Shown here piece by piece: positions 1,077 to 38,952 of a stretch of 60,131 bases of DNA. The DNA is taken from assembly GCA_023252215.1 (NCBI GenBank), contig JAHEXG010000003.1, forward strand, positions 1-60,131. Direction: 5' to 3'. The translations under genes and the position numbers were made by a program. The DNA is from Candidatus Altiarchaeales archaeon (lineage in GTDB: Archaea > Altiarchaeota > Altiarchaeia > IMC4 > QMZM01). The notes beneath the pieces are model-generated. The model had not been told where the DNA came from and searched no databases. It saw nothing but the letters and a program-made list of their open reading frames with translations. Numbering within the stretch: the stretch's first letter is position 1; every line of letters begins with the position of its first letter.

Positions 1077-1114
1077 TTTCAAAACTGGGTGGTTGAAAAC
1101 CACGCGGTTTGGTG
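1077..1114 (+). repeat. HP-1 imperfect hairpin element, copy 1
   Basis: TTTCAAAACTGG-GTGGTT-GAA-AACCAC-GCGGTTTGGTG. Same flanks as the copies at 5970, 25869 and 38914. Confidence 0.8.
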
Positions 1115-1139
1115 TAGGGTTCAAATCCCTTCGTATTCA
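1115..1139 (+). pseudogene. Decayed duplicate of the tRNA-Trp 3' end (T-arm + acceptor strand)
   Basis: TAGGGTTCAAATCCCTTCGTATTCA versus the genuine GAGGGTTCAAATCCCTCCGTCCCCA (828-852), 20/25 identical. No matching 5' acceptor strand was found. Confidence 0.6.
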
Positions 1140-1238
1140 TGATTTTGCTCGAAGTGCCTGAGAACGGAGTTCAGTATCCAGACGTGAGATGTCCATTTTT
1201 CTTGTGATATATTAAATATATTAAAGATATATGCGAAA

Positions 1239-1973
1239 ATGGCCTCTCCTAAGTTAAGGAACGAAACGAAGAAAGAGATTTTAAGATATATTCAAGAAAA
1301 AGCAACCTCTCAAACTTCTTTATCTGAACTTGCTCGAGATGCAATAATTAACAAGTTTAAATCTGAACAATTTGCTGACAATGATGTCAGGGAAATAATT
1401 GATGAGCTTATAAACAAGGATAAGGCTGTTCATTCACATAAGGTTAAATTAGATGTAATAATTCCTTATGACCGAGTTACTAATTTTACTAGAGAATACG
1501 CACCTTACATGACCAAAGGAACAACATCCATAGCTGTTATCAGTTTAATAATTACTATCTTGTTTATATCCTACTTTGGAAGTACTCCCACTCAGTCAGC
1601 TATGACTCCAAATACCTCTATGATAAATACAAACTCCACTTTAACCGATCAAAAAAGTGAGACTGCTCCAAACTATGGAGCATTATATCTCATTGGGCTG
1701 ATGCTTAACTTTCTTTTCTATAGTATTATCTATATTTTATATGAACCAATACTACGTAGCCTAAAACTTGGAATAGTTAACAATCGTAGAATTAATGTAG
1801 TTATTATTTCAGTCCTACTATCATTGGGCTTTACTACAATTATTATTTATTCATTTACCTTCCTCAACCATGAATCTTTTACTACAAATCATTTTGCGGC
1901 GGGTGTTACTGCAGGAGCTGCTCTAGCTGCGGTTGTTATCTATATATTCTCAAAAGACTTTCATGTGTCCTAG
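1239..1973 (+). CDS. Hypothetical membrane protein (soluble N-terminal domain, about 4 TM segments) in a low-GC segment
   Basis: 244-aa ORF with hydrophobic stretches in the C-terminal half. The surrounding DNA (about 1140-2080) is visibly AT-rich. Confidence 0.5.
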   Translation: MASPKLRNETKKEILRYIQEKATSQTSLSELARDAIINKFKSEQFADNDVREIIDELINKDKAVHSHKVKLDVIIPYDRVTNFTREYAPYMTKGTTSIAVISLIITILFISYFGSTPTQSAMTPNTSMINTNSTLTDQKSETAPNYGALYLIGLMLNFLFYSIIYILYEPILRSLKLGIVNNRRINVVIISVLLSLGFTTIIIYSFTFLNHESFTTNHFAAGVTAGAALAAVVIYIFSKDFHVS

Positions 1974-2094
1974 AAATAAATGTTTCCTTTGCGAGACCAA
2001 GATTGTTGTTTTGTCGGGTGGAAAACTTAACTCGACAGAACTACTTATATTCTTTAAATAAACATAATACACCTATATCACGTGTAATACCAAC

Positions 2095-2403
2095 ATGGCC
2101 GCAATCACCTTATCCGTCCCCGACGATCTTAAGAAGCGCATGGATTCCGTTGACTGGGTGAATTGGTCGTCCGTGGCTCGGAAGGCATTCGTTGAAAGAT
2201 TATCCGACGTGGAAGAGCTCGAAGCAAAGAAGAAGGTGGCGGAGATATCGGAGATCCCCGATGACGACAAAAGAGTAGTCAAGTCCAGTCTCGTCAAAAA
2301 GGTCGTCAAGTCCATCGACAAGACTTCAAAAGAGCTGAAAGCTGGCAAGATCAAGCCCATGTCCTTGGAAGAATTCAACAAAGGCCAGACTAGAAGAAAA
2401 TAG
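2095..2403 (+). CDS. Small ribbon-helix-helix (CopG-like) protein
   Basis: N-terminus ITLSVPDDLKKRMD...NWSSVARKAFVERL fits the RHH beta-alpha-alpha pattern. Confidence 0.4.
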   Translation: MAAITLSVPDDLKKRMDSVDWVNWSSVARKAFVERLSDVEELEAKKKVAEISEIPDDDKRVVKSSLVKKVVKSIDKTSKELKAGKIKPMSLEEFNKGQTRRK

Positions 2404-2405
2404 GC

Positions 2406-2726
2406 CTATATCGTTATCCCCTCTGCATTCGCCTTTCCGACTAAAGTCACTCCCTTGCTTCTTTTCCTGTATTCTTCCGGGGTATAGCAGATAAAATCCA
2501 CTGGCTGATCCGTCAGACCCCAGTAATCATACATCCTTGCTCCTCGTTGCATGTAGTCCAGGTCTTTGAATTTCGGGCTGACTATGATCAGGTCTACGTC
2601 GCTGTCTTTATGGGTTTTCCCGCTTGCCTGGCTTCCGAAGAGTATCATCTTCTCTACTGGATAGTCGCGGCTTATGTTTTTCTTTATTTCTTTCAGACTG
2701 TTTAAGAGATCTGTTTTTTTGCCCAT
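2406..2726 (-). CDS. Minimal nucleotidyltransferase (MNT family)
   Basis: Motif LFGSQASGKTHKDSDVDLIIV (GS...DxD). Overlaps the end of the upstream HEPN reading frame. Confidence 0.8.
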   Translation of the reverse strand: MGKKTDLLNSLKEIKKNISRDYPVEKMILFGSQASGKTHKDSDVDLIIVSPKFKDLDYMQRGARMYDYWGLTDQPVDFICYTPEEYRKRSKGVTLVGKANAEGITI

Positions 2727-3067
2727 TTTATTATTCCCTCGGCATAATCTGCAAATATTTTCGCTTTCAGGTCTATGTCCTTTATTTCCGGCATATCGGG
2801 GTATCTTGAGTATGTATAAGCCGGAGCAAGCTCCTTTGCCGACTCCATTATGTTCTTAGGCGCTTTAAGTTTCTTTGCCAGGAGCACCAGATCATGCGTT
2901 CTGATGAGTTCGCCTTCCTTTTCTATTAGAATCGCTTTAAAAGCTTTCTATGCAGCTTGCTGGCATAGGAAGACGCAGACATTGTACTTGCAGCCTGTGA
3001 GATTGTATCTTGCAGCATCTAAATCCTCGTCCGCCTTACATAGCCAACTAGCAGCCTCTGCTTTCAT
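2702..3067 (-). pseudogene. HEPN-domain gene interrupted by an in-frame TAG (codon 40, 2948-2950)
   Basis: Manual translation MKAEAASWLCKADEDLDAARYNLTGCKYNVCVFLCQQAA*KAFKAILIEKEGELIRTHDLVLLAKKLKAP... continues in frame into track ORF 2702-2887. The TAG sits where HEPN proteins usually have Glu (QQAAEKALKA). Confidence 0.7.
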
Positions 3068-3304
3068 AACTAATAAACAATTAGAATCCGTCGATTATAT
3101 ATCTATCCCAGAAAGGCGTTGTCTCAAAAGTTATGGCTTTCGCCTTCCTCTGCGGCTTCGTATGGGCATAAAATAATAAAAATTACGTTAAAAATTGTTA
3201 AAATGTGCCCATACACCTGTCATGTTTCTTCACCGCGCCGCATACGCACCCGTCCCGGCAACATCTTATCTACTCTCTTTCCCAATCCTTAACAGAACTA
3301 CAAC

Positions 3305-3826
3305 ATGAAAACCTTAATAGTATATTACTCCGGCACCGGCAGCAACAAAGCCCTTGCCGAAGACATGGCAAAAAGGATGAATGCCGATATCGAAGGCCTC
3401 GGCGGAGGCGGAACCATCGAAGGTATGGGCATTGCCGTCACTGCGTTCAAGTCGTTCATTGGCTTGGGTTCAGGCATCGGTAAATTAAAATACGATCCAA
3501 GCGGTTATGATCTTGTGGTCCTTGTTTCGCCTGTTTATGCAATGGGTGTCCCTCCTCAGATGAATGCGTATCTTAGCCGTTTCAAGGGCAAGATAAAGAA
3601 AGCAGCAATTGCATCAGTTTCGGGTTCCGGGAATAACCCTAAGGCTATGGCGAAGATGGAAAAGCTCGCGGGCGGTAAGGCAGTGGCTGTTCTTCAGCTG
3701 AAGGGCTTGGAGGACAAATCAGGGCCAAAGAAGGGCTTCCAGAAGCTCACCGCGCAAGATCTCGGAAAACCGGAATACGGGGAAAAGATCGATGCCTTCG
3801 TCCGGGCGGTTCAAAAGGGTCTTTGA
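3305..3826 (+). CDS. Flavodoxin-like fold protein
   Basis: N-terminus MKTLIVYYSGTGSNKALAEDMA is typical of flavodoxin-family proteins. Confidence 0.55.
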   Translation: MKTLIVYYSGTGSNKALAEDMAKRMNADIEGLGGGGTIEGMGIAVTAFKSFIGLGSGIGKLKYDPSGYDLVVLVSPVYAMGVPPQMNAYLSRFKGKIKKAAIASVSGSGNNPKAMAKMEKLAGGKAVAVLQLKGLEDKSGPKKGFQKLTAQDLGKPEYGEKIDAFVRAVQKGL

Positions 3827-4490: not shown

Positions 4491-5285
4491 ATGAAAACCT
4501 ACGAAATATTCGAAAAAGTCAGAAAGGAAAAGCCTTTAGTGCACCATATAACGAACTGGGTGACGATCTACGACTGCGCGAACATGACGCGCGCATTCGG
4601 GGCACTCCCGGTCATGGCGCATGCAAAGGAGGAGTCAGGGGACATGGCCTCTATCGCATCAGCATTAGTCTTAAACATCGGCACCCTCACTCCGGAACTC
4701 ATAGAGTCCATGATAATCGCGGCGAAGAGCGCGAACAAGAAAGGCATCCCGGTAGTCCTGGACGCAGTAGGCGTGGGCGCAACCAGGCTGCGCAACGAGT
4801 CTGCTGCGCAGCTATTGGATAAGGTAAAAATAGACATCATCAAGGGCAACTCGTCTGAAATAGCAAAGCTTGCAGGCATGAACGTATCGACCCGGGGCGT
4901 GGAAGCAACGAAGGTCGATACCGATCTTAGGGAGGTTGCAAAGAAACTGGCAAAGGAAAGGAAAGCAACAGTCGTCATAACCGGGAAGGAAGACATAGTG
5001 AGCGACGGCAAAAATACTTACCTGGTGAAAAACGGCCATGAATTGATGGGCAAAGTGGTCGGGACCGGCTGCATGGCGGCGTCAGTCATCGGCTCATTCG
5101 CGGCAGTAGAAAAGGACTACGCTAAAGCAGCGGCTGCGGCCTTATCTATTTACGGCATAGCCGGGGAGCTTGCAGCCGAAGAATCGGATGGCCCCGGAAG
5201 CTTTAAAGAGAATCTGTACGACGCAGTCTACAATCTGCAAAAAGATAGCATAGAGGAGTTGAGCGAAATTGAAGAACTTAAATGA
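4491..5285 (+). CDS. thiM: Hydroxyethylthiazole kinase
   Basis: 264 aa. [10 protein letters not shown]...[16 protein letters not shown] and VVGTGCM motifs are typical of ThiM. Confidence 0.85.
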
Positions 5286-5895
5286 CATCGACTTTTATTT
5301 CATAACCGACGCGCGCCTGAGCAAAAAAGGGATATTCTCAGACGTCGAGGACGCAGTCTGCGCAGGCTGCAGGATAGTCCAATACCGCGAGAAGGCCAAG
5401 AAAGATGAAGAGATGATAGAGGAAGCCAGAAAGCTAATGGAATCATGCGGGAACAATGTAATTTTTGTGGTGAACGACCGGGTCGATGTCGCTCTCGCAG
5501 TTGACGCAGACGGCGTGCACCTGGGACAAAAAGACCTTGACGTTGCGGATGCGAGAAAGATCCTTGGAAGAAAGATACTGGGCGTCACAGTGCATAACCT
5601 GCAAGAGGCTCGCAGGGCCGTAGAATATGGCGCAGATTACCTGGGAGTGAGCCCTATTTTTCCCACCAGTACAAAGTCCGACGCAGGCAAATCATGCGGA
5701 ACAGAATTAATAGAAAAGATAAAAGAAGAGATAACTCTGCCAATCGTAGCCATCGGCGGAATCACCAAAGCGAATACGCCTCAGGTCATAAGAGCCGGGG
5801 CAAACTCAGTAGCCGCGATCTCGGCAGTCATGTGCTCCGACGACGTTGAAAAAGAAGTCAGAGACTTTATAAGGATAATACATGAGCGTGTCTGA
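5269..5895 (+). CDS. thiE: Thiamine-phosphate synthase
   Basis: 208 aa. FYFITD...VQYREK...DGVHLGQKD...[11 protein letters not shown]...VAIGGI are typical of ThiE. Overlaps thiM by 17 nt. Confidence 0.85.
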
Positions 5896-5969
5896 TCTAT
5901 TAGCCGTCAGCATTGTCTTCGCTTCGCTCGACAGCAATCGGGGGGGAGGGTCAGGATGAACGGCGCAGC

Positions 5970-6010
5970 CTTTCAAAACTGGGTGGTTGAACTCAACCAC
6001 TCGGTTTGGT
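5970..6010 (+). repeat. HP-1 imperfect hairpin element, copy 2
   Basis: TTTCAAAACTGG-GTGGTTG-AACT-CAACCAC-TCGGTTTGGTG, 75 nt after the thiE stop. Confidence 0.8.
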
Positions 6011-6028
6011 GATTAATTAATTCTGCGT

Positions 6029-6940
6029 GTGAATAATTCTACGATGACTTTAAACAGCAGTAAAAGCTTCAGGAAACCGGAGAAAAAGGCCGGCGTGGGA
6101 CGCGGGAAGGTACTGCTGTTGCTCGTGGTTTTTGCATGCCTTCTGCTTACTGTTGCTGTTGCGGCCCTGCTTTTGGGCGGCGTTAAGATGGGGCAGCTGC
6201 CTCTTGTGGGGCAGAAAATAGCCATCATCCCTTTGAAGGGCGAGATCACTGCCGAAGGCTGTAGTGCCAGTTTATTCAGTTCTGCTTCGTGCGCTAATGT
6301 GGCTGCTATCAAAGAGATGCTGAAGGCTGCGGATAAGGATGATTCCATCCGGGCCGTGGTATTGGATATCAACAGCGGCGGAGGGTCTGTCGTTCCTTCA
6401 AGGGATCTTGCTTACACCGTTAAGGCTATGAAAAAGCCCGTTGTCGCCTTCATCGGGGAGACTGGTGCGTCTGGTGCTTATTATGTGGCTTCGGCCGCGG
6501 ATTATATAGTCACGGACCGGGATTCTATGACTGGCAGCATCGGGGTTATAATGACCATACAACAGATGTATGGGCTATACGATAAGCTGGGTCTGAACGT
6601 TACAGTAATTAAGTCCGGAAAGGTCAAAGACATAGGCAGTCCCTATAGGGAGATGACTCCCGAGGAGAATAAGGAGCTTACTAATATGGTCGATAAGATA
6701 TACGAAGATTTTATCTCAGACGTTGCCGTGAACCGTAACCTGTCAGTGGATTACGTGAGGAACATCTCCGACGGAAGCATATACCTTGGCAGGGATGCAA
6801 AAGACATGGGTCTGGTAGACTCGCTGGGCGGCATAGACGATGCAGTGCAGATAGCAGCGAGCCTGGGAAATGTCAGCGGGGAGCCTGCCATACAGAAGAC
6901 CGCGTCCAAGACCCTCAGTATATGGGATCTTTTTACCTGA
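6029..6940 (+). CDS. sppA: Signal peptide peptidase SppA (S49 family), membrane-anchored
   Basis: N-terminal TM segment, then [12 protein letters not shown]...[15 protein letters not shown]...GSIGV, typical of SppA 36K type. The true start may be ATG 6044. Confidence 0.8.
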
Positions 6941-7222: not shown

Positions 7223-7999
7223 CTATATCTCATAGCATTTCTTTGAATAGCCGCAGGACTCGCATTTTCTACCGCTCCCGTGGGGGCATATGTCCGGAAC
7301 CACTCCTTCAAGGATCTTGAACACTGCTTCCGAGGTCTCAGAAACCTTCTTTCTAAGGCTGTCAGTATTCATGACCGGCCTCATCTCCGGTACTCGCGTG
7401 TATTCTACAAAGCCGTAAGGTATTTTTTTCTTCGCCTGCACATCCTCTTCCAAGAGCAGGGCATAGGCGCACACCTGTATCCTATCCCCTTCCCAAACGC
7501 TCTCAGGCGGACTACAGGTCTTAATCTCCACAGGATAATAAAAGGATTCTTTCATGACCTTGTCTATCCTCCCGCACAGGCTCAGTTTCTCGGACGACAC
7601 AGGATAATCGACCCTCCACGGACTCATCCTGCGCAAGGCAGCATCAAAACCAAGGTCTTCTGCGATATAAGAAACCCGCTCACCCAATGCGCCCAAGTCG
7701 GCAAGGACCTCGGACCTCACAGCCTCAGCATCCTCTCTCCTAACAGAAGGATAATCTTCCAAGACGACTCCAAAAGAGCGCTCAACTACATCCCTCAAAG
7801 CAGAAACCAGGCCCCCGGCATCATCAACCGCTCCCAACAACTCCATCTGCTTAGCGATCAACGTCTTCCTCAACGCATGATCGAACAAACCCCTCTCCAG
7901 GCTGGCCACAGAATCAGGCTCAAGCCCCAGGACGCTGGAAAGATAAACGCTACGCGGACAAAAAGAATAAGAACTCAGAACCGAGACAGCAACTTTCAT
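7223..7999 (-). CDS. Cas4/DUF83-like PD-(D/E)XK nuclease with a 4-Cys cluster (no CRISPR-Cas nearby)
   Basis: N-terminal Cys (SYSFCPRSVY), GRIDKV...YPVEIKT core, C-terminal CESCGYSKKC (CX2CX5C). Confidence 0.65.
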   Translation of the reverse strand: MKVAVSVLSSYSFCPRSVYLSSVLGLEPDSVASLERGLFDHALRKTLIAKQMELLGAVDDAGGLVSALRDVVERSFGVVLEDYPSVRREDAEAVRSEVLADLGALGERVSYIAEDLGFDAALRRMSPWRVDYPVSSEKLSLCGRIDKVMKESFYYPVEIKTCSPPESVWEGDRIQVCAYALLLEEDVQAKKKIPYGFVEYTRVPEMRPVMNTDSLRKKVSETSEAVFKILEGVVPDICPHGSGRKCESCGYSKKCYEI

Positions 8000-10877: not shown

Positions 10878-11147
10878 GCGATGATAACGTCCAGGATTTT
10901 ACGAATGTGGCCTTCGGCCATTTGGACTGAGCGGCCGAAGAGAGCGGGCCTTAAAAAGCCGGTTATGCAGCCCGCAAGGGTCGAGGAGCCGAACGAGGCG
11001 ACGAGAAGTTCAAAAACGCGGCCGTCGTTCGTTCGTGTTGTTGCCTCAGTTCCGTCATTAATTAAGGGGGTGGAGGCGTCCGCAACCGGTTTATTTTTCT
11101 GTTGCTCTGTTAAGGAATATAAAGCGCTAAGACGCTATACTACCATA

Positions 11148-12488
11148 ATGGCTGATATTTCCGAGTCCGAGACCTTGGAGCTAAAGAAGTCTACGTCTGA
11201 ACTCCGGGAGGGTGTAATCTCCGTAGCGTCTATGCTAAACAAGCATGGGAAAGGCATCCTATACTTTGGCATAAGGAATGACGGTAAAGCTCTTGGTCAG
11301 GAAATCGGGGAGAGAACTTTAAGGGACGTATCACAGGCAATTTCAGAAAATATTGAGCCGAAGGTCTATCCAAAGATCAGCAAGGAAGATATAGGCGGTA
11401 AGATCTGCATCAAGGTCGAATTCTCCGGAAACAACAAGCCGTATTATGCTTATGGCAGAGCTTACGTGCGTGTAGCCGATGAGGATCGTCAGTTGTCTGC
11501 TAAGGAGATCGAAGAAACAATCCTTCGCAAGAACAAAGATAAGCTACGCTGGGACACTGAAGTATGTGAGAAGGCGACGGTGTCTGACATAAGTCCAAAG
11601 AAGCTTAAATCATATGTCCGGAAAGCACATCTGAGATATGATTCGATTGAAAATGCCTTACAAAAGCTTGGCCTGCGATCCGATGGAAAGATTTTAAACG
11701 CCGCAGTACTGTTATTTGGTCGAAAGCCCGAGACGTTTTTTCCAAATGCCCGCCTAAGGTGTGCAATATTTGCGACGACCGATACTCATCTTCCTCTTGA
11801 CATGCAGGACTATAAAGGAGACCTGTTCACTTTAATAGAAACTGCTCAGCAATACATCCTCCAAAACATACACGTGGGCATGAGGCTTGAAGGCCTGTAC
11901 CGCGTGGATGTGCCGGAAATATCCCAAGAAGCGTTCAGAGAAGCCATAATAAACGCCTTCTGCCACCGAGACTACAGGGAATACGACTCGGTAAACATAG
12001 CGATATTCCGCGACCGCCTGGAAATAAGAAGTCCAGGACTGCTGTATGGCGGACTTACTATAGAGAAGATCAGGCGAGACATGGTATCAGAGAGACGGAA
12101 TGAACTGATCGCCGACCTATTGCATAGGATACATTTCATAGAAAAATGGGGCCGTGGAATAAGCCTTATATTATCAAACGAGCCGACAGCGAACTTCAAG
12201 GAATCGGGAACGCATTTTATAACGACCTTTAAGAGAAAGAGCGTTGAAGCGCAGATGGGCGAGCAAACCGGAGGGTTGGTAGATAGGTTGGTAGATGGGT
12301 TGGTAGAAAACCAAAAGAAGATACTGCGCTTAGTGAAGGTAGACCCATCCATATCAAAAAGAGAACTGGCGCAGAAAACGGGTATCAGCACCACAGCAGT
12401 TGATAAAAACATATCTACTCTCAAGAAGAAAGGCCTGCTGAAACGGGTAGGTCCGGCTAAAGGGGGGCGATGGGAATTGAGTGGATAA
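11148..12488 (+). CDS. Schlafen/AlbA_2 domain + HATPase_c_4-like + C-terminal wHTH protein (COG2865 type)
   Basis: ESETLELKKS...MLNKHGKGILYFGIRNDG at the N-terminus and NAFCHRDY...IEKWGRGI in the middle. HTH at the C-terminus (ISKRELAQKTGISTTAVDKNISTLKKKGLL). Start chosen at ATG 11148. The upstream 270 nt of the track ORF look non-coding. Confidence 0.7.
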   Translation: MADISESETLELKKSTSELREGVISVASMLNKHGKGILYFGIRNDGKALGQEIGERTLRDVSQAISENIEPKVYPKISKEDIGGKICIKVEFSGNNKPYYAYGRAYVRVADEDRQLSAKEIEETILRKNKDKLRWDTEVCEKATVSDISPKKLKSYVRKAHLRYDSIENALQKLGLRSDGKILNAAVLLFGRKPETFFPNARLRCAIFATTDTHLPLDMQDYKGDLFTLIETAQQYILQNIHVGMRLEGLYRVDVPEISQEAFREAIINAFCHRDYREYDSVNIAIFRDRLEIRSPGLLYGGLTIEKIRRDMVSERRNELIADLLHRIHFIEKWGRGISLILSNEPTANFKESGTHFITTFKRKSVEAQMGEQTGGLVDRLVDGLVENQKKILRLVKVDPSISKRELAQKTGISTTAVDKNISTLKKKGLLKRVGPAKGGRWELSG

Positions 12489-12546
12489 GGGGTAATTAAT
12501 CTGTGCCATATATCTTGGTATGGCCTATTGAATTTATGACCACCGG

Positions 12547-13857
12547 TTACCCTGACTTGGACTTTAGCATTTCCTCAAGAACACATGTCGTGGCTATTTC
12601 TACTGGCATGCCTAAGGCGCAAGCGGTATATGCAAATAATGTTAAGATTGTTAACGGCTTCTCTTCAATTTCTTTAATCTGTTTTTCAATTGACTGTAAA
12701 GGATAATATTGTTCGTTTTTCATACATATCGGTAGGCCGAATTTCTCAACAAAGTCGAGATAGTTTTTACTTTGGAAATATAGACTTGTTTTCCAACAGT
12801 TGATTAGCCTAAATTTTATTTCTATCATATCCTTATAACTAGCCTCAGACAGGAAATCCGAATATTTTTTGAAAATAGCTAAAATTGCACCGAAAATTAA
12901 TCGTCCACTCAAGAATTTAATATCAAAGGTAGATGTATCCCCCTCTCGAGAGTTGTATTTTTTATTTAATGCTTCCAACAAATCCTTATCATACTCCTCA
13001 GAGTTGCCAAAAATTGTAGTTAAGGGTAATAAAATTTTTAAGTTGCCGTAAATATCAATCTCCATAGACAAGCCATTTAAGTTAAAATCACCTTTGCTGA
13101 GCGTTCTTAATACAATACTGTTATGATATGTATTGATGGTATCAAAAAATATCGTACCCCCAAATGATATTTCTTTATCCTCAGTAGAGTCCTTTATTTT
13201 ATATGGTTCATTAAATTTTTTAAGAATATCCAGCATTTTCTCAGGAAAAAGTAGATCCTCGATAAAATGATGCTTAAATGGTTTTGGCGTAGCGTATATT
13301 TCAAGATACGATAGGCTATCCTCCCCTTTACAAAACGTTAATTCACACTTTCTAAATTTTTCTAAATCTTCATCATATTTCTGAGCTTTTTTGTAGAGTT
13401 CATCGATAATATGCCTATTCGTTTCTGGAATGGGATCGGACGCTGACCCTTGTCTCCTGTAAATTATTCCATCAGAGTTAATATACGGTGGGTTTTTCCC
13501 TTCAGGTATTACTACCATCAAGACATTCATTCCGTTACGAAGAGGTAATGTAAAAGTTTCAAACAACGGAAAAGGTTGCAAATTACCCCTTACGGAGTCT
13601 CTAATTATGTCTGGCGAATCTTTGATACCAATTATATTGGTCGCAAAATTAGTCTTTGTATCTGAATCGATCCCTATAAAATATATGCCCCCATGAGAAT
13701 TAGCAAAAGAAGCTATCGATTTTGATATTTTTCGCCCATTCAATTTTTCCTTTTTGTACTCGATATACCAACCCTCAGCAATGGATTTAAGTAATTCCAA
13801 ATCGCTTTCTTTAACCTCTTCAAAATCTTTTCCGAAGGGATTGAACAAGTTTCTCAC
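12547..13857 (-). CDS. AlbA_2 (Schlafen-like) N-terminal domain protein with a C-terminal region of about 300 aa and unknown function; low-GC gene
   Basis: ESDLELLKSIAEGWYIEYKKEK...SIASFANSHGGIYFIGID. Gene and flanks (about 12500-14160) are visibly AT-rich. Confidence 0.6.
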   Translation of the reverse strand: MRNLFNPFGKDFEEVKESDLELLKSIAEGWYIEYKKEKLNGRKISKSIASFANSHGGIYFIGIDSDTKTNFATNIIGIKDSPDIIRDSVRGNLQPFPLFETFTLPLRNGMNVLMVVIPEGKNPPYINSDGIIYRRQGSASDPIPETNRHIIDELYKKAQKYDEDLEKFRKCELTFCKGEDSLSYLEIYATPKPFKHHFIEDLLFPEKMLDILKKFNEPYKIKDSTEDKEISFGGTIFFDTINTYHNSIVLRTLSKGDFNLNGLSMEIDIYGNLKILLPLTTIFGNSEEYDKDLLEALNKKYNSREGDTSTFDIKFLSGRLIFGAILAIFKKYSDFLSEASYKDMIEIKFRLINCWKTSLYFQSKNYLDFVEKFGLPICMKNEQYYPLQSIEKQIKEIEEKPLTILTLFAYTACALGMPVEIATTCVLEEMLKSKSG

Positions 13858-17687: not shown

Positions 17688-18515
17688 TTAGATTATCATC
17701 CCTAGGCCGAAGCCTAATAAGAGTCCAAGAGTAATGGGCGGAAGCGCCGGCAGGACTACGTCTTTTTTGTTGATGATATAGAAGAACAATGCTGCAAGGC
17801 CGAGTAGTCCGCCCAGGCTCGTAGCGGCCGCCTGAGTTACAGTGTAATCCCTTAGCACGGAAACCGAGAACACCAGCGGTATGGCCAGGTCTCCCGTGCC
17901 CAGGCCCAGTATCCTTTCTCCTACTGGTATTCCGAACATCAGGGGCAGTTTTCCTTTTGCGCCTTCGGCCAGAGTCACCATATGCTTTGTGCCGAACACC
18001 GCGACCAGGTCGTAACAGGACAGGCCTATGAGCAGTACCAGCGAGGGAACGAAGGCGAGGGATGCGCCCATCCAGGAGCCTATGCCCGGCAGAGAGAGTA
18101 TGAGTAAGGCGTTCATAACTGTTAGATTATGTCTCTTCCAATACGCTATTATAAAGACCGGGATTGCCAGAAGCGCTCCGGCAGCGCCTAATAGACCCCA
18201 CAAGGTTATGTCCAGGCCCGCGAAAAGACCAAGGTAAATAATTAGTTTTATTACCTGATTGAATTTATATTTCATGAGTACCAGGAGCGCGGCAGTTGAT
18301 GCCAGTACGTATGCGAATATCTGCAGAGAAGATGTGACGTCTCCTGGGTTGTCCACTACCGGCTGAAGGTCTCCTCCCTCTTTTACGTTGTCTATTATAC
18401 CGCGGCTTCCGTCTGGTCCGGTCCTGCTGATGTAGAGCCCTATGCCCTGGACCAAAAGGTATATGGCTGCGGCGATGAGCAGCGGCTTAAGATGCCCTGC
18501 ATCCAACTTATGCAT
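17688..18515 (-). CDS. Presenilin / signal-peptide-peptidase-like intramembrane aspartyl protease (PSH family)
   Basis: Polytopic protein. YD (LSCYDLVAVFG), GxGD (LGLGTGDLAIP) and PAL (VVLPALPP) motifs occur in the expected order. Confidence 0.7.
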   Translation of the reverse strand: MHKLDAGHLKPLLIAAAIYLLVQGIGLYISRTGPDGSRGIIDNVKEGGDLQPVVDNPGDVTSSLQIFAYVLASTAALLVLMKYKFNQVIKLIIYLGLFAGLDITLWGLLGAAGALLAIPVFIIAYWKRHNLTVMNALLILSLPGIGSWMGASLAFVPSLVLLIGLSCYDLVAVFGTKHMVTLAEGAKGKLPLMFGIPVGERILGLGTGDLAIPLVFSVSVLRDYTVTQAAATSLGGLLGLAALFFYIINKKDVVLPALPPITLGLLLGFGLGMII

Positions 18516-20583
18516 CCTCCGTGAACTGGTATTTGTCGTGCCTGGGCTCGAATATCACGCCCTTGCTCTTTAATTCGTTTATTATCTTCTCAACCTCGGA
18601 GCGGTCTATTTTCTTCTCGGCAGTCGCAGCAAGTATCTCCTGCATTCCCGCACTCTTCTCCGGGCTGTTTGCGATGATTCCTCTGATAGTGGTCTCCACT
18701 ATCTTTATCCGGTCTCTTGCGGACTGGGAGTGGTCGGTTGCGATCCGGTCTATGTCTATCTTTCCTGTGATCTTGTCTGTTGCAACCTCTCGCAGGACGA
18801 AGTTTGTTAGATTGATGACCCGTTCCGCATCTTCCACCGTAACCTCGCTGCGCAGCCTTATCTTTGCCGAGGCCTCTGCCAGCCTGACCAGGGCCTCAAG
18901 CTGTCTTGCGGTCGCACGTACTGTGTCGCGGTCTCCTCCTCTTAGTTCTACGTAATAGTCCCGCAGCTTTATCCCGGCTTCTTCCGAGAGCAGGGGGTGT
19001 ATGTTCTTGCGGGCGTAGGCGATGTATTTTCTGAACAGGTCTACCGATATTGCGGGCTCCAGGTCTTTTTGGTCTTCGCCTACTTTGTGCATCTTCAGCA
19101 TGTGTTCCGCTATCTTTCGGTCAGTGTCCCGGTCTACGATGTCCTGTATGGGAAAGATCAGGTCAAATCTGGATATCAGGGTCGGCGGTATGTCGAACTG
19201 TTCGCCGAGGGGCTTGTAGGAATCGAATCTGCTGAATTTTGGGTTCGACGCAGCCAGTATCGCAGTGTTGCACTTGAACCTTGCGACGATGCCGGCTTTT
19301 GCTACGCTGATCGTTTGCTGTTCCATTGCCTCGTGCATCGCGGCCCGGTCTTCTTTTTCCATCTTGTCGAATTCGTCGATGCATGCTATTCCTCCGCCTG
19401 CTAGGACGAGCGCTCCTGCTTTCAGGGTCCAGGCGCCTTCTGCTAGTTCGTCTTTCTCGGCCGTGGCCGTCAGGCCTGCGCCCGTTGTTCCCTTGCCTGA
19501 GACGTAGATACTCTTTGGGGCTATCTGGTCCACGTATTTGAGGAGACGCGATTTAGCGACACCGGGGTCGCCGATGAGAAGCAGATGTATGTCGGCTCTC
19601 ACCTTTCCTCCGTCAGGCAGCGTCTTGCCCTGCCGTCCGCCGAACATCTGCAAGGCGATGGCCTCCTTTACTTCGCGGTATCCGTAGATGGACGGAGCGA
19701 TCGAATCGACTATCTTCCGGTATACTTCCGGGTCGCGGGAGAGTTTCTGTATCTCTTTTTCTTCCTTCTTTGTTATCTCGATATCCTCAAAGTCCTTCTC
19801 CACGGGCTCTATGTAGTTAGCCTCTATGAACTTATAATACACCGACCCCTTCTTCTGCGGAGGCTGCAAACGTATGACTCCGGTCAAAGTCACCTTGTCT
19901 CCTGCAGTAACCTTGTCTGTGAGGTCGTCCTCCACCCATACTTTGATCTTTCTGGCCTGTTCTCCGCCTTTTATGTATTCCAGGGGTTCCTGTATCTCCA
20001 GTACCTGGAAATCAAGCCACTGCGACTCCTCTGGAAGGAAGCGGAAATCCATTTTGCCGCAGTCTCTGCATCGCACGGGCTGGACTATCTGCCCCCGCAG
20101 GCGGTCTTCGCGTTCCTGTCGTATGTCCATGTTCTGGCCGCATCCGTTGCAGCGGAATTTGGCCACATATAATTTGGGCAATACGTCGCTTATCCGGTTC
20201 ACCACGCCCTCGGTGCCTAGGAAGTGGGCGATGGTCTCGGAGTCGATGAAGCGCACCATCAACGTATATCCTTTCTCCTTAGGTAGGTTAGTGAATCTTA
20301 CGTGGAACTCCGGACTACCGGAAGCGCCGGTTTCAAGGACCGGGATATTCCGCTCGTTCAAAGCCTGCTCGAATATGTCTATAACGCCGGTCGGGGTCTT
20401 TTTCCCCTGGCTGTCATAGGTTACGCCGTAGGGATTGGCCAGTAAAGCTTCCGCGATGTCGGAGTCGAATTTCTCCAGCGCCTGCCAGTCAAGGACCAGG
20501 CTCTTCTCCTCGGGATACTTTTCGGCAAGCTGGTTGATCGCTTCCTCCCTTCCGTCTAAGAATTTCTCGATACGGTCCTTCAT
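18508..20583 (-). CDS. mcm: MCM replicative helicase
   Basis: 691 aa. Zn motif CNGCGQ...CRDCG, Walker A GDPGVAKS, Walker B CIDEFDKM, arginine finger SRFDLIF. Confidence 0.95.
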   Translation of the reverse strand: MKDRIEKFLDGREEAINQLAEKYPEEKSLVLDWQALEKFDSDIAEALLANPYGVTYDSQGKKTPTGVIDIFEQALNERNIPVLETGASGSPEFHVRFTNLPKEKGYTLMVRFIDSETIAHFLGTEGVVNRISDVLPKLYVAKFRCNGCGQNMDIRQEREDRLRGQIVQPVRCRDCGKMDFRFLPEESQWLDFQVLEIQEPLEYIKGGEQARKIKVWVEDDLTDKVTAGDKVTLTGVIRLQPPQKKGSVYYKFIEANYIEPVEKDFEDIEITKKEEKEIQKLSRDPEVYRKIVDSIAPSIYGYREVKEAIALQMFGGRQGKTLPDGGKVRADIHLLLIGDPGVAKSRLLKYVDQIAPKSIYVSGKGTTGAGLTATAEKDELAEGAWTLKAGALVLAGGGIACIDEFDKMEKEDRAAMHEAMEQQTISVAKAGIVARFKCNTAILAASNPKFSRFDSYKPLGEQFDIPPTLISRFDLIFPIQDIVDRDTDRKIAEHMLKMHKVGEDQKDLEPAISVDLFRKYIAYARKNIHPLLSEEAGIKLRDYYVELRGGDRDTVRATARQLEALVRLAEASAKIRLRSEVTVEDAERVINLTNFVLREVATDKITGKIDIDRIATDHSQSARDRIKIVETTIRGIIANSPEKSAGMQEILAATAEKKIDRSEVEKIINELKSKGVIFEPRHDKYQFTEDA

Positions 20584-25446: not shown

Positions 25447-25845
25447 ATGAAAGGATTAGCTTCTTACTGGAGATTGATTCCTCAAAGGTATAACCTTATT
25501 GGAACCGAGTGCAATCACTGCAAGCAAAAGTTCTTCCCTCCGAGGAAGATATGCCCCACCTGTAGACGGCATGGGGAGATAAAGAGCTATAAATTCAAAG
25601 GCGTTGGAGAGATTTACTCGTACACCGTAATACATGCTGCGCCCGATGGGTTCGAGTTTCAGAAGCCTTACGCGCTAGGGCTCATAAGGTTGGTCGAAGG
25701 ACCTCTTGTGACTGCGCAGATCGTGGACTGTAAGCCGGACGAAGTAGAAGTTGGGAAGAAAGTGGAAATGGTTTTTAGGAAGATTTTTGCCGGTGGGAAG
25801 GAAGGGACTATCCGGTATGGATATAAGTTTAAGTTGGTTGACTGA
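25447..25845 (+). CDS. DUF35 OB-fold/Zn-ribbon protein (scaffold of the thiolase/HMGCS complex)
   Basis: CNHCKQKFFPPRKICPTC...YSYTVIH...GLIRLVEGP. ATG lies 1 nt after the thiolase stop. Confidence 0.8.
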   Translation: MKGLASYWRLIPQRYNLIGTECNHCKQKFFPPRKICPTCRRHGEIKSYKFKGVGEIYSYTVIHAAPDGFEFQKPYALGLIRLVEGPLVTAQIVDCKPDEVEVGKKVEMVFRKIFAGGKEGTIRYGYKFKLVD

Positions 25846-25868
25846 TTATTTGTTTTCTTCTATTGGCC

Positions 25869-25908
25869 TTTCAAAACTGGGTGGTTGAACTCAACCACGC
25901 GGTTCGGG
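25869..25908 (+). repeat. HP-1 imperfect hairpin element, copy 3
   Basis: TTTCAAAACTGG-GTGGTTG-AACT-CAACCAC-GCGGTTCGGG, 23 nt after the DUF35 stop. Confidence 0.8.
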
Positions 25909-25911
25909 CGG

Positions 25912-25951
25912 GAAGGGACTATCAGGTACGGCTGCAAATGGGGTGCTTGAG
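25912..25951 (+). pseudogene. Second, divergent copy of the DUF35 gene 3' end
   Basis: GAAGGGACTATCAGGTACGGCTGCAAATGGGGTGCTTGA (EGTIRYGCKWGA*) versus the genuine 25801-25845 (EGTIRYGYKFKLVD*). The three differences in the first 7 codons are all synonymous. Confidence 0.65.
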
Positions 25952-36319: not shown

Positions 36320-36394
36320 GGGCCCGTAGCTCAGACTGGTTAGAGCGCTCGACTCATAATCGAGTGGCCGTGGGTTCAAATCCCTCCGGGCCCA
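36320..36394 (+). tRNA. tRNA with anticodon CAT (elongator Met or Ile2)
   Basis: GGGCCCG/CGGGCCC acceptor, anticodon arm CTCGA-CTCATAA-TCGAG, T-loop TTCAAAT (one T-stem mismatch). Confidence 0.85.
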
Positions 36395-36397
36395 ACC

Positions 36398-36415
36398 TCC
36401 CTTCACAGGGACGTT
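36398..36415 (+). repeat. Conserved tRNA-trailer hairpin TCCCTTCACAGGGACGTT (copy 2)
   Basis: Identical to 857-874. Starts 4 nt after the tRNA end. Confidence 0.7.
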
Positions 36416-36512
36416 GATGGAAAATCCTAAAGGACGTCCCAGTGGGACAAACAGGAGGCAGGGTCTTCGACCCCCCCATAACGCACATTTTCAAAGATAA
36501 GAGGTCCATAAA

Positions 36513-36746
36513 ATGATTATTGAAGTAGGCAGGGTCTGCAGGAAGACCACAGGAAAAGACGCCGGCAAATACTGCGTGATCGTGGAAAAAATAGACGACA
36601 ACTATGTAATGACGGAGGGCATTGCCCAGAAGAGGAAAAAGACCAGCATACTACATCTCGAACCTCTGCCCAAAGTCCTGGAAATAAAGAAAGGCGCATC
36701 CACGGACGAAGTAAAAAAGAAACTGGAAGAAGAGAACCTCGCCTAG
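36513..36746 (+). CDS. rpl14e: Ribosomal protein L14e (KOW)
   Basis: MIIEVGRVCRKTTGKDAGKYCVIVEKIDDNYV... Confidence 0.8.
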   Translation: MIIEVGRVCRKTTGKDAGKYCVIVEKIDDNYVMTEGIAQKRKKTSILHLEPLPKVLEIKKGASTDEVKKKLEEENLA

Positions 36747-36753
36747 GTATGAT

Positions 36754-37752
36754 ATGAAACCAGCAGGCCTAACAGACGTCCTGATAAAGGAAGAGGCCGA
36801 AACAGACCCCGGATACGGCTGCCCCCCGGAAAACCGGGACATAAAAACACATCTGAACGACGGCATAGTCAACATCGACAAACCAGCAGGCCCCAATTCT
36901 CACCAAGTAACAACCTGGGTAAAAGAAATACTCGAACTGCCCAAGACCGGACACTCAGGAACACTAGACCCAAAAGTAACCGGTGTCCTACCGGTAGCGC
37001 TTGGAAACGCAACCAAAATAGTCAAAGTACTACTCCTATCAGACAAAGAATACGTCTGCCTAATGTCCCTACACGACACCGCGCCAAAAGACCGGCTGGA
37101 AAAAATATTCCACGAACTACAGGGCCCGATATTCCAGACACCCCCCATCATGTCCGCGGTAAAAAGAGAACTACGCATAAGAAACATATACGAATTAAGA
37201 CTGCTAGAACGAAACGGAAAAGAAATCCTCTACAAAGTCAGATGCGAAGCAGGAACCTACATAAGAAAACTCTGCCACGACATGGGAATAATCCTTGGAA
37301 CAGGCGCACACATGCACGAACTACGCAGGACAAAAGCAGGCTCATTCGACGAAACAAGCCTGGTAATACTACAGGACCTGAAAGACGCCTACGTAGCCTA
37401 CAAAGAAACAGGCGACGAAACAAGGCTGCGCAAACTAGTCCTCCCGGTCGAAGCAGGCGTCAAAAACATAAGAAAAATATGGATAAAAGACTCCGCCATA
37501 GACGCAATATGCCACGGAGCAGACCTCAACGCGCCAGGGATAAGCCTGCTGGAAAAAAACATAAACAAAAACGACCCAGTCGCCCTAATGTCCCTGAAAA
37601 ACGAACTAGTAGCACTCGCCAAAGCAAACTACGCATCAGAAGACCTGCAAAAAATGCAAAAAGGCCCCGCAGCAACCCTCGTACGCGTAATAATGGAAGC
37701 AAACACCTACCCAAAACAATGGCATAAAAACAAGGCAGAAAAAACAGCATAA
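36754..37752 (+). CDS. cbf5: tRNA/rRNA pseudouridine synthase Cbf5 (TruB + PUA)
   Basis: GHSGTLDPKVTGVLPVALG catalytic motif. Uninterrupted (no mRNA intron). Confidence 0.9.
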   Translation: MKPAGLTDVLIKEEAETDPGYGCPPENRDIKTHLNDGIVNIDKPAGPNSHQVTTWVKEILELPKTGHSGTLDPKVTGVLPVALGNATKIVKVLLLSDKEYVCLMSLHDTAPKDRLEKIFHELQGPIFQTPPIMSAVKRELRIRNIYELRLLERNGKEILYKVRCEAGTYIRKLCHDMGIILGTGAHMHELRRTKAGSFDETSLVILQDLKDAYVAYKETGDETRLRKLVLPVEAGVKNIRKIWIKDSAIDAICHGADLNAPGISLLEKNINKNDPVALMSLKNELVALAKANYASEDLQKMQKGPAATLVRVIMEANTYPKQWHKNKAEKTA

Positions 37753-37793
37753 TAAAACCACATAATCCCTAATCCATAACCTCATAATAGACG

Positions 37794-37949
37794 ATGAACA
37801 ACCTGCCAAGCATACAAAGCTGCCCAAAATGCAAAGGAGGACTAGAAGAACAAGAAAACAGCCTAATATGCCGCAGATGCAGAACACGCTACTCCCTAAA
37901 CCACGGAATACCCATAATGATAGTCGACTCAGCTGAAAAAGCAAGCTAA
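37794..37949 (+). CDS. Trm112/UPF0434-like Zn-ribbon protein (51 aa)
   Basis: Manual translation MNNLPSIQSCPKCKGGLEEQENSLICRRCRTRYSLNHGIPIMIVDSAEKAS*. Confidence 0.6.
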   Translation: MNNLPSIQSCPKCKGGLEEQENSLICRRCRTRYSLNHGIPIMIVDSAEKAS

Positions 37950-37979
37950 AAAAAAGTCGAACACAAATCATCCACACAT

Positions 37980-38067
37980 GCTGAGGTGGCAGAGTTTGGT
38001 CTAACGCGCGGGCCTGCTAAGTCCGTTCCTCGAAAGGGGAGCTTGGGTTCAAATCCCAACCTCAGCG
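37980..38067 (+). tRNA. tRNA-Ser (GCT), long variable arm
   Basis: GCTGAGG/CCTCAGC acceptor, anticodon arm CGGGC-CTGCTAA-GTCCG, extra arm, T-arm TTGGG-TTCAAAT-CCCAA. Confidence 0.85.
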
Positions 38068-38250
38068 CACCTTTTTTGCCTTCGAGAAGGCATGCCCTGT
38101 TGGGCATTTCTTAAGAAGAAAGATGCCTGAAGGCATGTCCCTGAATGGACAAAGAAGGGTGAGGCCTTCAGGCCCCACAGTGACGTGATATTTTTCGGCG
38201 CGATACCAATAATCCATATCCCAAAAAAAAATATTTTTGGAGGAACAAAA

Positions 38251-38457
38251 ATGGCTGGTCCGGAAAAGAGAAAACATCCCATATCGGAGATGGCAACAGG
38301 GAAAATACACCCCATACAGGCGATGAATAAATCCATAAATGAAAGAGAAAACAGAGGATCCGCAAGAGAAGATTTCAGCATGAACAAAGACGAGCGCGCA
38401 GGAATGAAACGCGTCATAGAAAGCGCCGCAAAATTCCAACCATACAAGAAAAAATAA
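38251..38457 (+). CDS. Hypothetical small basic protein (68 aa)
   Basis: ORF between tRNA-Ser and tRNA-Ala with GGAGG upstream. No recognisable motif. Confidence 0.25.
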   Translation: MAGPEKRKHPISEMATGKIHPIQAMNKSINERENRGSAREDFSMNKDERAGMKRVIESAAKFQPYKKK

Positions 38458-38471
38458 GGGAATAGAAAAAA

Positions 38472-38545
38472 GGGCTCGTAGATCAGTTCGGTAGATCGCC
38501 CGCTTGGCGTGCGGGAGGCCTCGGGTTCGAATCCCGACGAGTCCA
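38472..38545 (+). tRNA. tRNA-Ala (GGC)
   Basis: G3:U70 pair present. Anticodon arm CCCGC-TTGGCGT-GCGGG, T-arm TCGGG-TTCGAAT-CCCGA. Confidence 0.9.
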
Positions 38546-38646
38546 ATCCCTATCCCTCCCGCTTATTATTTTAACCTCAAACCCCTATCATAGACCATTT
38601 CATTCAACGGAACCGTGGGGTCGAAAGATCCCACGCTGATTCAACC

Positions 38647-38668
38647 GGGACCGTGGGGTAGCTTGTCC
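38647..38668 (+). pseudogene. Isolated copy of the tRNA-Pro 5' end (19 nt identical, 21/22)
   Basis: GGGACCGTGGGGTAGCTTGtCC versus the genuine 38752-38773. Followed by a trailer-like hairpin instead of the rest of a tRNA. Confidence 0.65.
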
Positions 38669-38751
38669 AGAACTCTCCCAAAGGGATGGTTTCATCCCCA
38701 AAAGAAAATTAAATTATAGAAACAATAAAAAATTTAATAAAATTCATTAAT

Positions 38752-38825
38752 GGGACCGTGGGGTAGCTTGGCCATCCTTCTAGCTTGGGGTGCTAGAAAC
38801 CTGTGTTCAAATCACAGCGGTCCCA
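38752..38825 (+). tRNA. tRNA-Pro (GGG)
   Basis: GGGACCG/CGGTCCC acceptor, anticodon arm CTAGC-TTGGGGT-GCTAG, T-arm CTGTG-TTCAAAT-CACAG. Confidence 0.85.
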
Positions 38826-38913
38826 TAGGAATCCCCCTCAAGGGATTATTCCATTCCCAAAAGAAAAGACAATGGGGTCTAAAGACCCCCCGTGGGGTGG
38901 GTCAGGATTAACC

Positions 38914-38952
38914 TAAAACTGGGGAGGGGCAAAGCCCCTCCGCGGTTTGGAG
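38914..38952 (+). repeat. HP-1 imperfect hairpin element, copy 4 (upper stem fully compensated)
   Basis: TAAAACTGG-GGAGGGGC-AAA-GCCCCTCC-GCGGTTTGGAG. Confidence 0.8.

Follow-up and report, generated by a model that had tools for sequence, protein, structure and literature searches.

We analysed a 60,131-nt stretch of DNA from a Candidatus Altiarchaeales archaeon (contig JAHEXG010000003.1; this whole stretch is hereafter called the window), which carries four copies of an imperfect hairpin named HP-1. HP-1 very probably belongs to a mobile structured element. Judging from the aligned copies, it forms the 3' stem-loop (P3) of a structured, strand-specific module of ~57-62 nt, whose right end is precise and is followed in about a third of copies by a repeat of adjoining host sequence. 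Our favoured reading, which we hold only tentatively, is that of a non-autonomous, non-coding mobile element of Altiarchaeota and other DPANN-type archaea that would pass through a + sense single-stranded (likely RNA) intermediate and enter its sites in a homology-dependent manner.

HP-1 as the 3' stem-loop of a structured module

All four HP-1 copies were found where the original prediction had placed them, on the + strand at 1077-1114, 5970-6010, 25869-25908 and 38914-38952. A relaxed hairpin pattern matched the window three times, against 0.00 matches expected from 100 shuffles. A covariance model (CM) was built from unrelated metagenome copies and then run on the window; it returned exactly four sites, all HP-1 and none elsewhere in the 60 kb (38891-38952, 79.8 bits; 5940-6011, 51 bits; 25870-25907, 26.1 bits; 1009-1114, 23.5 bits). 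The stems are as previously described, with GTGGTTG/CAACCAC as the upper stem in copies 1-3 and GGAGGGGC/GCCCCTCC in copy 4, above a lower stem of AAC-U.G-G/C and a G.G mismatch that is replaced by G.T in copy 2. The hairpins fold more stably than dinucleotide shuffles (z of -3.8 to -5.4), and the + strand folds better than the - strand by ~7 kcal/mol (-15.1 vs -7.9 and -26.0 vs -18.8 kcal/mol) because of the invariant U.G pair.

Two claims about the hairpin needed to be revised. The stem had been called fully compensated; pairing is indeed kept, but the change seen inside the window is a difference between two subfamilies and forms no graded series. HP-1 had also been taken as the unit. The hairpin is real, but the unit is larger, since a conserved GGGGNGGRTCAGG stands 6-53 nt upstream in copies 1, 2 and 4; copy 3 is truncated and lacks it. 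The 5' two-thirds of the module, its spread in DPANN-type archaea, its serial arrays and the repeats of gene starts and intergenic DNA had all been overlooked.

In the aligned copies, the module runs from GGGGWGGGTCAGG through a small or expandable hairpin (P2), AAACTGG and the P3 stem-loop to GCGGTTYGG; written in RNA letters with its 5' part, it reads 5'-GGGGWGGGUCAGG, P2, AAACUGG, P3, GCGGUUYGG-3'. P3 has a stem of 7-9 bp and a loop of 3-6 nt, and P2 can hold extra hairpins. A further hairpin (P1) stands 2-4 nt upstream of the module in ~16 of 62 copies, and its stem varies freely with pairing kept. Copies associated with tRNAs carry an extra 5' region ahead of P1 and the module, consisting of a hairpin, TTCAYCCC and AAAAGAAAAG. 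As for the two subfamilies, window copy 4 is of the common (main) type and copies 1-3 are of an alternative (alt) type, which was also seen in L118, L157 and L166 (L-numbers are labels of contigs or loci compared with the window).

The claim that selection acts on a folded single strand was borne out by the variation among 58 distinct copies. Standard pairs occupied 99.9% of pair cells, and pairing fell to 36-60% when the register was slid. Four pairs of P3 were changed on both sides, with a covariation score reached by 0 of 500 shuffles; a fifth covarying pair at the P3 base exchanges A-U for G-C, and the P1 hairpin covaries as well. All seven non-Watson-Crick variants were G.U on the + strand, and none was A.C. 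The G.U-only variants, the covariation and the fold energies together indicate that the + strand is the folding strand, as RNA or single-stranded DNA.

The module recurs in metagenomes and matches no described family

The JGI (Joint Genome Institute) metagenome collection was queried with the conserved 5' motif of the module (motif A) plus the hairpin foot, the stem being left free. This composite motif occurred on 66 contigs, with ~0.6 expected by chance as estimated from the information content of the pattern, and the CM revealed further tandem copies in L100, L118, L152, L114 and L135. Host contigs ranged from 41 to 63% GC. The pyrophosphatase encoded on a high-GC contig (L099) has its closest named relatives in Micrarchaeota and Woesearchaeota (~71% identity), and L139:1-1100 carries the 3' end of an archaeal 23S rRNA and then an RNase P RNA (101 bits), directly past whose 3' end lies a module in the opposite orientation. 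The thiolase and SppA of the window have their closest named relatives in metagenome-assembled genomes of Candidatus Altiarchaeota. By these comparisons, the module is spread across DPANN-type archaea and is near-invariant in sequence.

An Rfam 15 gathering-score scan of the window returned tRNAs only, and Rfam E-value scans of window positions 600-1300 and of 18 module-bearing loci placed no family at the motif. No match was found in IMG/VR viral contigs, PLSDB plasmids or GenBank phages, and literature searches by sequence string and keywords yielded no description of the motif. A loose hairpin-only pattern matched viral contigs 67 times, none with a hairpin; an alt-type pattern gave 26 matches in the GTDB species genomes, which were at chance level, one per unrelated bacterium, and none hairpin-like. 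The element had been proposed not to be a described family, a view that a known family, the lack of further copies or the lack of structure-preserving variation was to count against. The searches agree with it: no family matched, copies lie on 66 contigs, and their variation preserves the structure. Ca. Altiarchaeum hamiconexum has the highest density of MITEs (miniature inverted-repeat transposable elements) among archaea, as reported in a census in which the motif is not described (PMC11602168).

Host sequences are repeated at the right edge of the module

The 3' end of the module is precise, its 5' side ragged. In 21 of ~60 distinct copies, a host repeat restarts 0-6 nt past the final G of the module; these repeats are 12-78 nt long (78 nt in L147), and their first copy ends 2-150 nt before the module. 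The repeated segment is usually the end of the upstream tRNA or open reading frame (ORF), so placed that the intact gene is kept and its old end is displaced. Such repeats of gene or tRNA 3' parts with a regenerated gene, a feature of integrative elements, are present in three of the four window insertions described below (E1, E3 and E4) and in seven metagenome loci. The tRNA repeats run from the T-arm or T-loop to the end of the tRNA and are identical at 193 of 194 positions in seven loci; over the following 35 nt, matches drop to 40-75% of aligned columns. Relative to the module, every tRNA-derived repeat is sense-oriented; modules head-on to a tRNA occur only in L110 and L140, where they abut the tRNA 3' end without a repeat. 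Protein-gene repeats end at the stop codon or within one or two codons of it, and in L147 the insert provides a new stop. The 21-nt repeat of L122 is the exact overlap of two convergent genes. Elsewhere the repeat is a gene start or 5' untranslated region (L145, L136, L121) or promoter DNA (L109).

Copies without a repeat have their right edge 0-3 nt from a start codon, a convergent stop, tRNA position +1 or, on the - strand, the terminus of a tRNA or RNase P RNA, and in more than 20 copies the right edge of the module abuts a start codon, convergent stop or tRNA end within 0-3 nt. The 5' side is heterogeneous, with nothing, P1 alone or 100-190 nt, and at times a partial module (L134, L140). 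No common motif was found in the left flanks, unlike IS200/IS605 insertion, which occurs 3' of a fixed tetra- or pentanucleotide. Partner repeats lying kilobases upstream, as in full-size elements, were not found except for a probable paralogue in L118, and a search for a TATA box at a fixed distance upstream of P1-less copies gave no consistent signal.

Modules are gained and lost and accumulate serially

Each hairpin had been predicted to lie at the right edge of a small insert. This was supported by empty sites in relatives for three of the window insertions (numbered E1-E4 after the HP-1 copies), namely E4 (L118), E3 (L096) and E2 (L164/L165). L118, which is syntenic at the tRNA cluster and has a flanking protein ~90% identical, lacks both E4 and a 146-nt insert upstream of tRNA-Pro. 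It carries a module after tRNA-Ser, where the window keeps only a P1-like hairpin; after tRNA-Asn, L118 and L156 carry one to three modules and the window carries none. L096 has no E3 insert, and L097, an 84%-identical relative, has a full module at the same DUF35 gene end, with the same repeat restart as E3 and another stem tip in which pairing is kept. E2, absent from L164/L165, has an orthologous copy with the same right flank at L166:3112-3196, beside which lies an older neighbour copy.

Some sites carry several units. Three units follow one another after tRNA-Ser in L100, and the tRNA 3' fragment behind each of them is shorter and more decayed than the one before; a single site holds two units in L114, and L152 has four. 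In the serial arrays of L100 and L114, the left junction is constant and the right junction varies, the repeats of successive events measuring 39, 31 and 25 nt (L100) and 34 and 17 nt (L114). In L114, the constant left junction shows a GGGG microhomology. The DUF35 3' end was targeted in the window, L097 and L147, with a different repeat start in L147. Other sites that recur across lineages lie upstream of top6A, upstream of tRNA-Ala, and at tRNA-Ser and tRNA-Asn.

Modules at orthologous sites are ~93% identical, with flanks at 75-86%; examples are the copies upstream of top6A (L136/L162, L129/L149), those upstream of tRNA-Ala (L141/L155/L163), and E2 with L166. This conservation shows purifying selection on these copies, and domestication of some of them is plausible.

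As had been noted before, no integrase, transposase or casposase is visible in the window: none of the 30 window ORFs scanned against Pfam is an integrase, transposase, reverse transcriptase (RT) or Cas1, and none of these was present among the called genes of L097 and L164-L167. When the ORFs of the loci were clustered, the recurrent neighbours were only housekeeping genes, such as that of topo VI A, and tRNAs. Just beyond the tRNA-Asn array of L156, in a region that replaces the tRNA-Met neighbourhood of the window, a large ORF (L156:900-2450, -) weakly matches an IS4-like DDE transposase (E = 1.8e-4, which does not reach the Pfam cutoff). It was set aside as unrelated.

The insertions of the window and their surroundings

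The genes adjoining the four copies are housekeeping genes: an intron-containing tRNA, thiE and sppA, an HMG-CoA synthase/thiolase/DUF35 operon, and a tRNA cluster. The 3' end of the upstream gene had been described as repeated after three of the four hairpins; this holds for copies 1, 3 and 4, and copy 2 has no significant flanking repeat (score 15 vs 14.8 for the null).

E1 (853-1112, +; ~260 nt, alt type) targets a tRNA with an intron (693-852, +; Rfam tRNA, 36.6 bits), the last 28 nt of which (825-852) are the upstream copy of the repeat, X. The anticodon region reads CCA, so this is tRNA-Trp; the gene was found by Rfam and missed by ARAGORN, and its intron of ~87 nt has C/D-box-like ATGATGA and CTGA motifs, as do archaeal pre-tRNA-Trp introns. 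E1 is composed of two 5' hairpins (969-988 and 989-1001), motif A (1012-1024), an expanded P2 and P3 (HP-1 copy 1, 1080-1112). The 63 nt just 5' of its module are 79-85% identical to L157 and L124. The downstream copy, X' (1113-1139, +), is the displaced and decayed T-arm and 3' acceptor strand of the tRNA and matches 825-852 in 23 of 29 aligned columns; a weak tRNA-like Rfam match covers 1066-1139.

E2 (5940-6011, +; alt type) lies between thiE (5269-5895) and sppA (ATG near 6044), as annotated by Pfam, with motif A at 5943-5955 and P3 (HP-1 copy 2) at 5974-6009. E3 (25846-25907, +) is a truncated copy composed of a 23-nt T-rich spacer and P3 (HP-1 copy 3, 25872-25907); motif A and P1 are missing, and the CM match spans model positions 22-60 only. 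By alignment, its X (25795-25845, +) is the functional 3' end of an OB_ChsH2/DUF35 gene and its X' (25910-25950, +) the displaced last ~45 nt of that gene, stop codon included (32 matches in 51 aligned columns, gapped).

E4 (38827-38952, +; 126 nt, main type) follows tRNA-Pro(GGG), whose last 26 nt, as called by ARAGORN, are X (38801-38826, +). It consists of a trailer-like hairpin, TTCCATTCCC, AAAAGAAAAG, P1 (38873-38889) and the module (38894-38950, including HP-1 copy 4). X' (38953-38978, +) is a perfect displaced copy from the T-arm to the 3' end (26 of 26 identical); the 35 nt after it agree in no more than 21 of 37 aligned columns. Upstream of tRNA-Pro, a degenerate related insertion (38600-38747, +; 146 nt), the one absent from L118, contains a hairpin resembling P1 (38615-38634) and a degenerate form of motif A/P2 that has no HP-1 stem. 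It also holds a copy of 19 nt from the 5' end of tRNA-Pro (38647-38665), a trailer-like module and a promoter-like AT-rich stretch, and has the look of a 5'-side relative of the element that has decayed. GC hairpins of the P1 kind, with no module attached, were seen downstream of tRNA-Ser (38159-38178) and of tRNA-Met (~36463-36480). The tRNA-Ser hairpin of L118 precedes a complete alt-type module and a 3'-end fragment of another tRNA, and the window may have lost its module at this site.

Several other features of the window were recorded. A stand-alone Cas4-like PD-(D/E)XK nuclease (7223-7999, -) has no CRISPR-Cas neighbours and occupies the same place in L164 and L166. Two adjacent Schlafen/AlbA_2 proteins (10881-13857), one of them also with HATPase_c_4 and a winged helix-turn-helix domain, fall in a low-GC patch (37%, 12-14 kb) that may be a defence or foreign island. 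An MNT-type nucleotidyltransferase (2406-2726, -) has a relative in L164 with an adjacent HEPN partner, so it probably belongs to a toxin-antitoxin pair. The MCM of an 80% relative (L164:19313-20137; 1240 aa) has an intein with LAGLIDADG, and the window MCM (18508-20583; 691 aa) is intein-free. A very strong strand-specific AT skew of up to +/-0.43 per 2 kb runs through the whole window and tracks gene orientation (e.g. at 26-30 kb and 36-38 kb), which suggests markedly purine-rich coding strands.

A possible route of movement and its alternatives

In the route that we tentatively favour, the element would be copied via a single strand of + sense, most probably RNA that is then made into cDNA, and the module would set the 3' terminus of this intermediate. 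The intermediate would carry along a piece of the neighbouring host transcript or gene and would enter the same gene of another genome, or of its own, through recombination or repair guided by homology instead of a transposase that the element encodes; the enzyme would act in trans. Homology-dependent entry with a host piece would account for the fixed orientation, the recurrence of the same genes across lineages, a left boundary that stays constant and filler bases where the junction varies. The near-invariance of the 57-nt core in hosts of 41-63% GC points to conserved trans-acting machinery. The nearest known precedent is the hybrid tRNA-plasmid cDNA route of Neurospora retroplasmids.

Several points speak against this route. 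Neither an RT nor any other candidate enzyme is tied to the element, and intermediates, whether circular or linear, have not been observed. The 15-nt repeat of L109 sits in TATA-like DNA that precedes the probable start of transcription, and it would be hard to obtain from a host transcript. The constant left junction of L114, with its GGGG microhomology, would suit end-joining equally well, and young staggered-cut duplications or a site-specific integrase would also yield perfect tRNA repeats. The conserved copies at orthologous sites could reflect host function rather than ongoing mobility.

A bolder interpretation, which we consider doubtful, is a new class of prokaryotic mobile element in which a ~60-nt RNA defines its own 3' end, rides on host transcript ends, is recopied to DNA and is installed by homology, as an archaeal 'SINE (short interspersed element) without a LINE (long interspersed element)'; included in the same estimate is the related idea of a new RNA-processing or self-cleaving motif. 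With such a motif, the module could be cut from the downstream tRNA or leaderless mRNA, and insertions could be phenotypically silent. DPANN archaea and Altiarchaeota have very small, densely packed genomes, about whose mobile elements little is known; an element that inserts exactly at gene boundaries and rebuilds the displaced gene end would represent a new mode of life in compact genomes. Should its intermediate be RNA, archaea would have their first family of SINE-like retroposons, and the element would be a natural case of homology-directed, template-driven insertion. The CM can also serve as a marker for strain-level variation in Altiarchaeota populations, the element accounts for scattered pieces of tRNA that might otherwise pass for split or pseudo-tRNA genes, and a structured RNA absent from Rfam is flagged.

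Among the alternatives, a miniature integrative element is unlikely but survives best. It would be a deletion derivative retaining only attP, moved by a tyrosine or serine integrase encoded elsewhere, with the module and P1 as the attR-side arm, the 5' region as the attL-side arm and the repeat as the att (attachment) core. The att-like tRNA repeats are best explained in this way: in 7 of 7 young cases, they run perfectly from the T-arm or T-loop to the 3' end, the classic att signature. Fixed orientation, restored gene ends (E3, L147, L132), tandem arrays at one tRNA and the shared 5' region of tRNA-associated copies (TTCAYCCC, then AAAAGAAAAG) fit as well. However, no integrase lies in or near any insert, as judged from the window ORFs and the called genes of the loci, and no partner repeat lies kilobases off, barring the one probable paralogue in L118. 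Many inserts are only 60-130 bp, and the implied circles of 74-150 bp (L109, L114, E4) would be too small for duplex synapsis. Moreover, repeat length varies among serial events at one site (L100, L114), the targets are very diverse for a module that is nearly invariant, and the selection on one strand seen in the G.U variants is unexpected for a duplex binding site. If an integrase does move the element, its module would be the smallest mobilisable att module known.

We regard as quite unlikely a retroposon or transposon with true target-site duplications, made by SINE-like target-primed RT or by variably spaced staggered nicks and then filtered by selection in compact genomes, where only insertions whose duplication leaves both adjoining genes intact would persist. 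The precise 3' end and the ragged or truncated 5' side with 0-8 filler nucleotides (minimal copies in L109, L114 and L132) are as this explanation would have them, as is the variable duplication length, and it accommodates the L122 repeat that coincides with a convergent-gene overlap, the L109 repeat in untranscribed promoter DNA and the right edges within 0-3 nt of gene or tRNA boundaries in more than 20 copies. Either orientation should survive such filtering, yet at least 12 independent tRNA 3' loci are all co-oriented and none is inverted. Duplications of up to 78 nt exceed those of known prokaryotic transposases, and the constant left and variable right junctions are the reverse of target-primed RT, in which the first nick fixes the 3' junction. 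The recurrence of the same genes in different lineages and the lack of an A-rich or repeat tail also disagree with it.

It is very unlikely that the module primarily serves the host as a cis-acting signal in RNA or DNA (for processing or stability, an insulator or terminator, or a small RNA) and was spread by ordinary recombination, with the repeats being incidental. Module conservation of ~93% at orthologous sites with flanks at 75-86% would suit such a signal, as would modules placed between a promoter and a tRNA +1 position or directly before start codons, where a 5' leader would need removal. Against this stand the differing presence and absence between close relatives, the serial pile-ups, decayed copies and fragments, and the heterogeneous contexts (5' of genes, 3' of genes, beside RNase P RNA); passive spread also does not explain why repeats restart exactly at the last base of the module in a third of copies.

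Most improbable is a REP (repetitive extragenic palindrome)/REPIN-like or IS200/IS605-type element (palindrome-associated transposable element, PATE), in which an HUH transposase (RAYT or TnpA) would read P1 and P3 on one DNA strand. The hairpins are strand-specific, imperfect and extragenic, the foot of the upper stem and the right end are 9-10 nt apart, and base pairing joins the hairpin's 5' flank to its 3' flank, which recalls the pairing of guide and cleavage site at IS608 ends. The high MITE density of Ca. Altiarchaeum (PMC11602168) would also be in keeping. But such elements are expected to make no target duplication and to use a fixed tetra- or pentanucleotide, in contrast to the 12-78 nt repeats without a common target motif seen here; many copies have no P1, there is no GTAG-type REP head, the window encodes no TnpA, TnpB or RAYT, and the Rfam scans found no HEARO or other omega-RNA family.

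Further candidates were rejected outright. A peptide encoded by motif A and the hairpin was dismissed because reading frames differ among copies, and SSV-type split integrase fragments because no translation is conserved on either strand. A variable/template repeat pair of a diversity-generating retroelement does not apply, as the targets include tRNAs and the repeat differences are not adenine-specific. With a TnpB/omega-RNA-like guide, the repeat would target the intact host copy itself, and no omega-RNA family matched. A tRNA-like fold of the module plus T-arm gave only weak Rfam tRNA or mascRNA matches, with no consistent acceptor pairing across targets. The known self-cleaving ribozymes (hammerhead, twister, pistol, hatchet and hepatitis delta virus) had no Rfam matches, and no core motif of theirs was recognised.

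Comparison with known systems

The element does not show what defines MITEs, IS200/IS605 derivatives, casposons, attC sites or integrase-borne elements nor, judging from the module and the 30 window ORFs, what defines REPs. Group II intron domain 5 offers one local resemblance, between its foot GAGCCG...CGGUUC and RAACUG...CGGUUY of the module. That domain, which precedes domain 6, is a hairpin of 34 nt marked by an AGC triad, a bulge of 2 nt and a GNRA loop, whereas the module has an AAC triad, a 1x1 mismatch, variable loops and no domain 6; Intron_gpII did not match in the Rfam E-value scans of window positions 600-1300 and the 18 loci. With integron attC sites, the module shares an imperfect hairpin with an unpaired stem base, an AAC...GTT foot, a variable tip and single-strand-specific folding, and its 57 nt lie at the low end of the usual attC length range. 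The attC boxes R'' and R' (RYYYAAC, GTTRRRY) are not matched by CCTCAAAC and GTTYGG (foot CCTMAAAC/GTTYGG), the junction falls after GG and not within G|TT, neither cassette arrays nor intI were seen, and host repeats flank the insert.

Like the MITEs of Ca. Altiarchaeum hamiconexum (PMC11602168), the element is small, non-coding, intergenic and multi-copy, and it occurs in the same host clade. Unlike them, it has no terminal inverted repeats: its ends are GGGGAGGG... and ...CGGTTYGG, of which 5'-GGGGWGGG and CGGTTYGG-3' are not complementary, and its inverted repeats are internal hairpins only. Nor does it have a fixed short target-site duplication, the repeats being 12-78 nt and absent in about two thirds of copies. 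Casposons differ in having Cas1, where the window has only the solo Cas4-like nuclease (7223-7999), as well as terminal inverted repeats and a fixed target-site duplication of 14-15 bp, against repeats of 12-78 nt here. REP/REPIN-RAYT systems and IS200/IS605 PATEs are likewise short, GC-rich, imperfect palindromes, multi-copy and placed extragenically or at gene ends, with single-strand recognition. The module departs from them in its asymmetry, its conserved G-rich single-stranded 5' segment and its long sense host repeats, and there is no conserved target tetranucleotide, no GTAG head and no RAYT, TnpA or other HUH transposase among the 30 window ORFs.

Closer parallels are found in two groups. 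Integrative elements that target tRNAs through tyrosine-integrase att sites share direct repeats of the tRNA T-arm to 3' end or of ORF 3' ends, a regenerated gene with its old end displaced, a fixed orientation and tandem arrays at one tRNA. The present inserts differ in being 60-260 bp, non-coding and devoid of integrase or cargo, in having a repeat length that varies at one site, and in combining one conserved strand-specific module with many unrelated targets. SINEs, stringent-type non-LTR (long terminal repeat) retroposons and Neurospora retroplasmids differ from the element in that its host is archaeal, no A-rich tail is present, repeats reach 78 nt, tRNA repeats are perfect, no RT was found in the window or the loci examined, and the junction pattern of the serial arrays departs from simple target-primed RT. 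What they have in common with it is a 3' stem-loop that sets a precise 3' end, a variable 5' extent, variable duplications, a host tRNA 3' portion joined to the 5' side, and a non-coding nature with dependence on functions supplied in trans. The Mauriceville and Varkud retroplasmids of Neurospora integrate via hybrid tRNA-plasmid cDNAs and homologous recombination.

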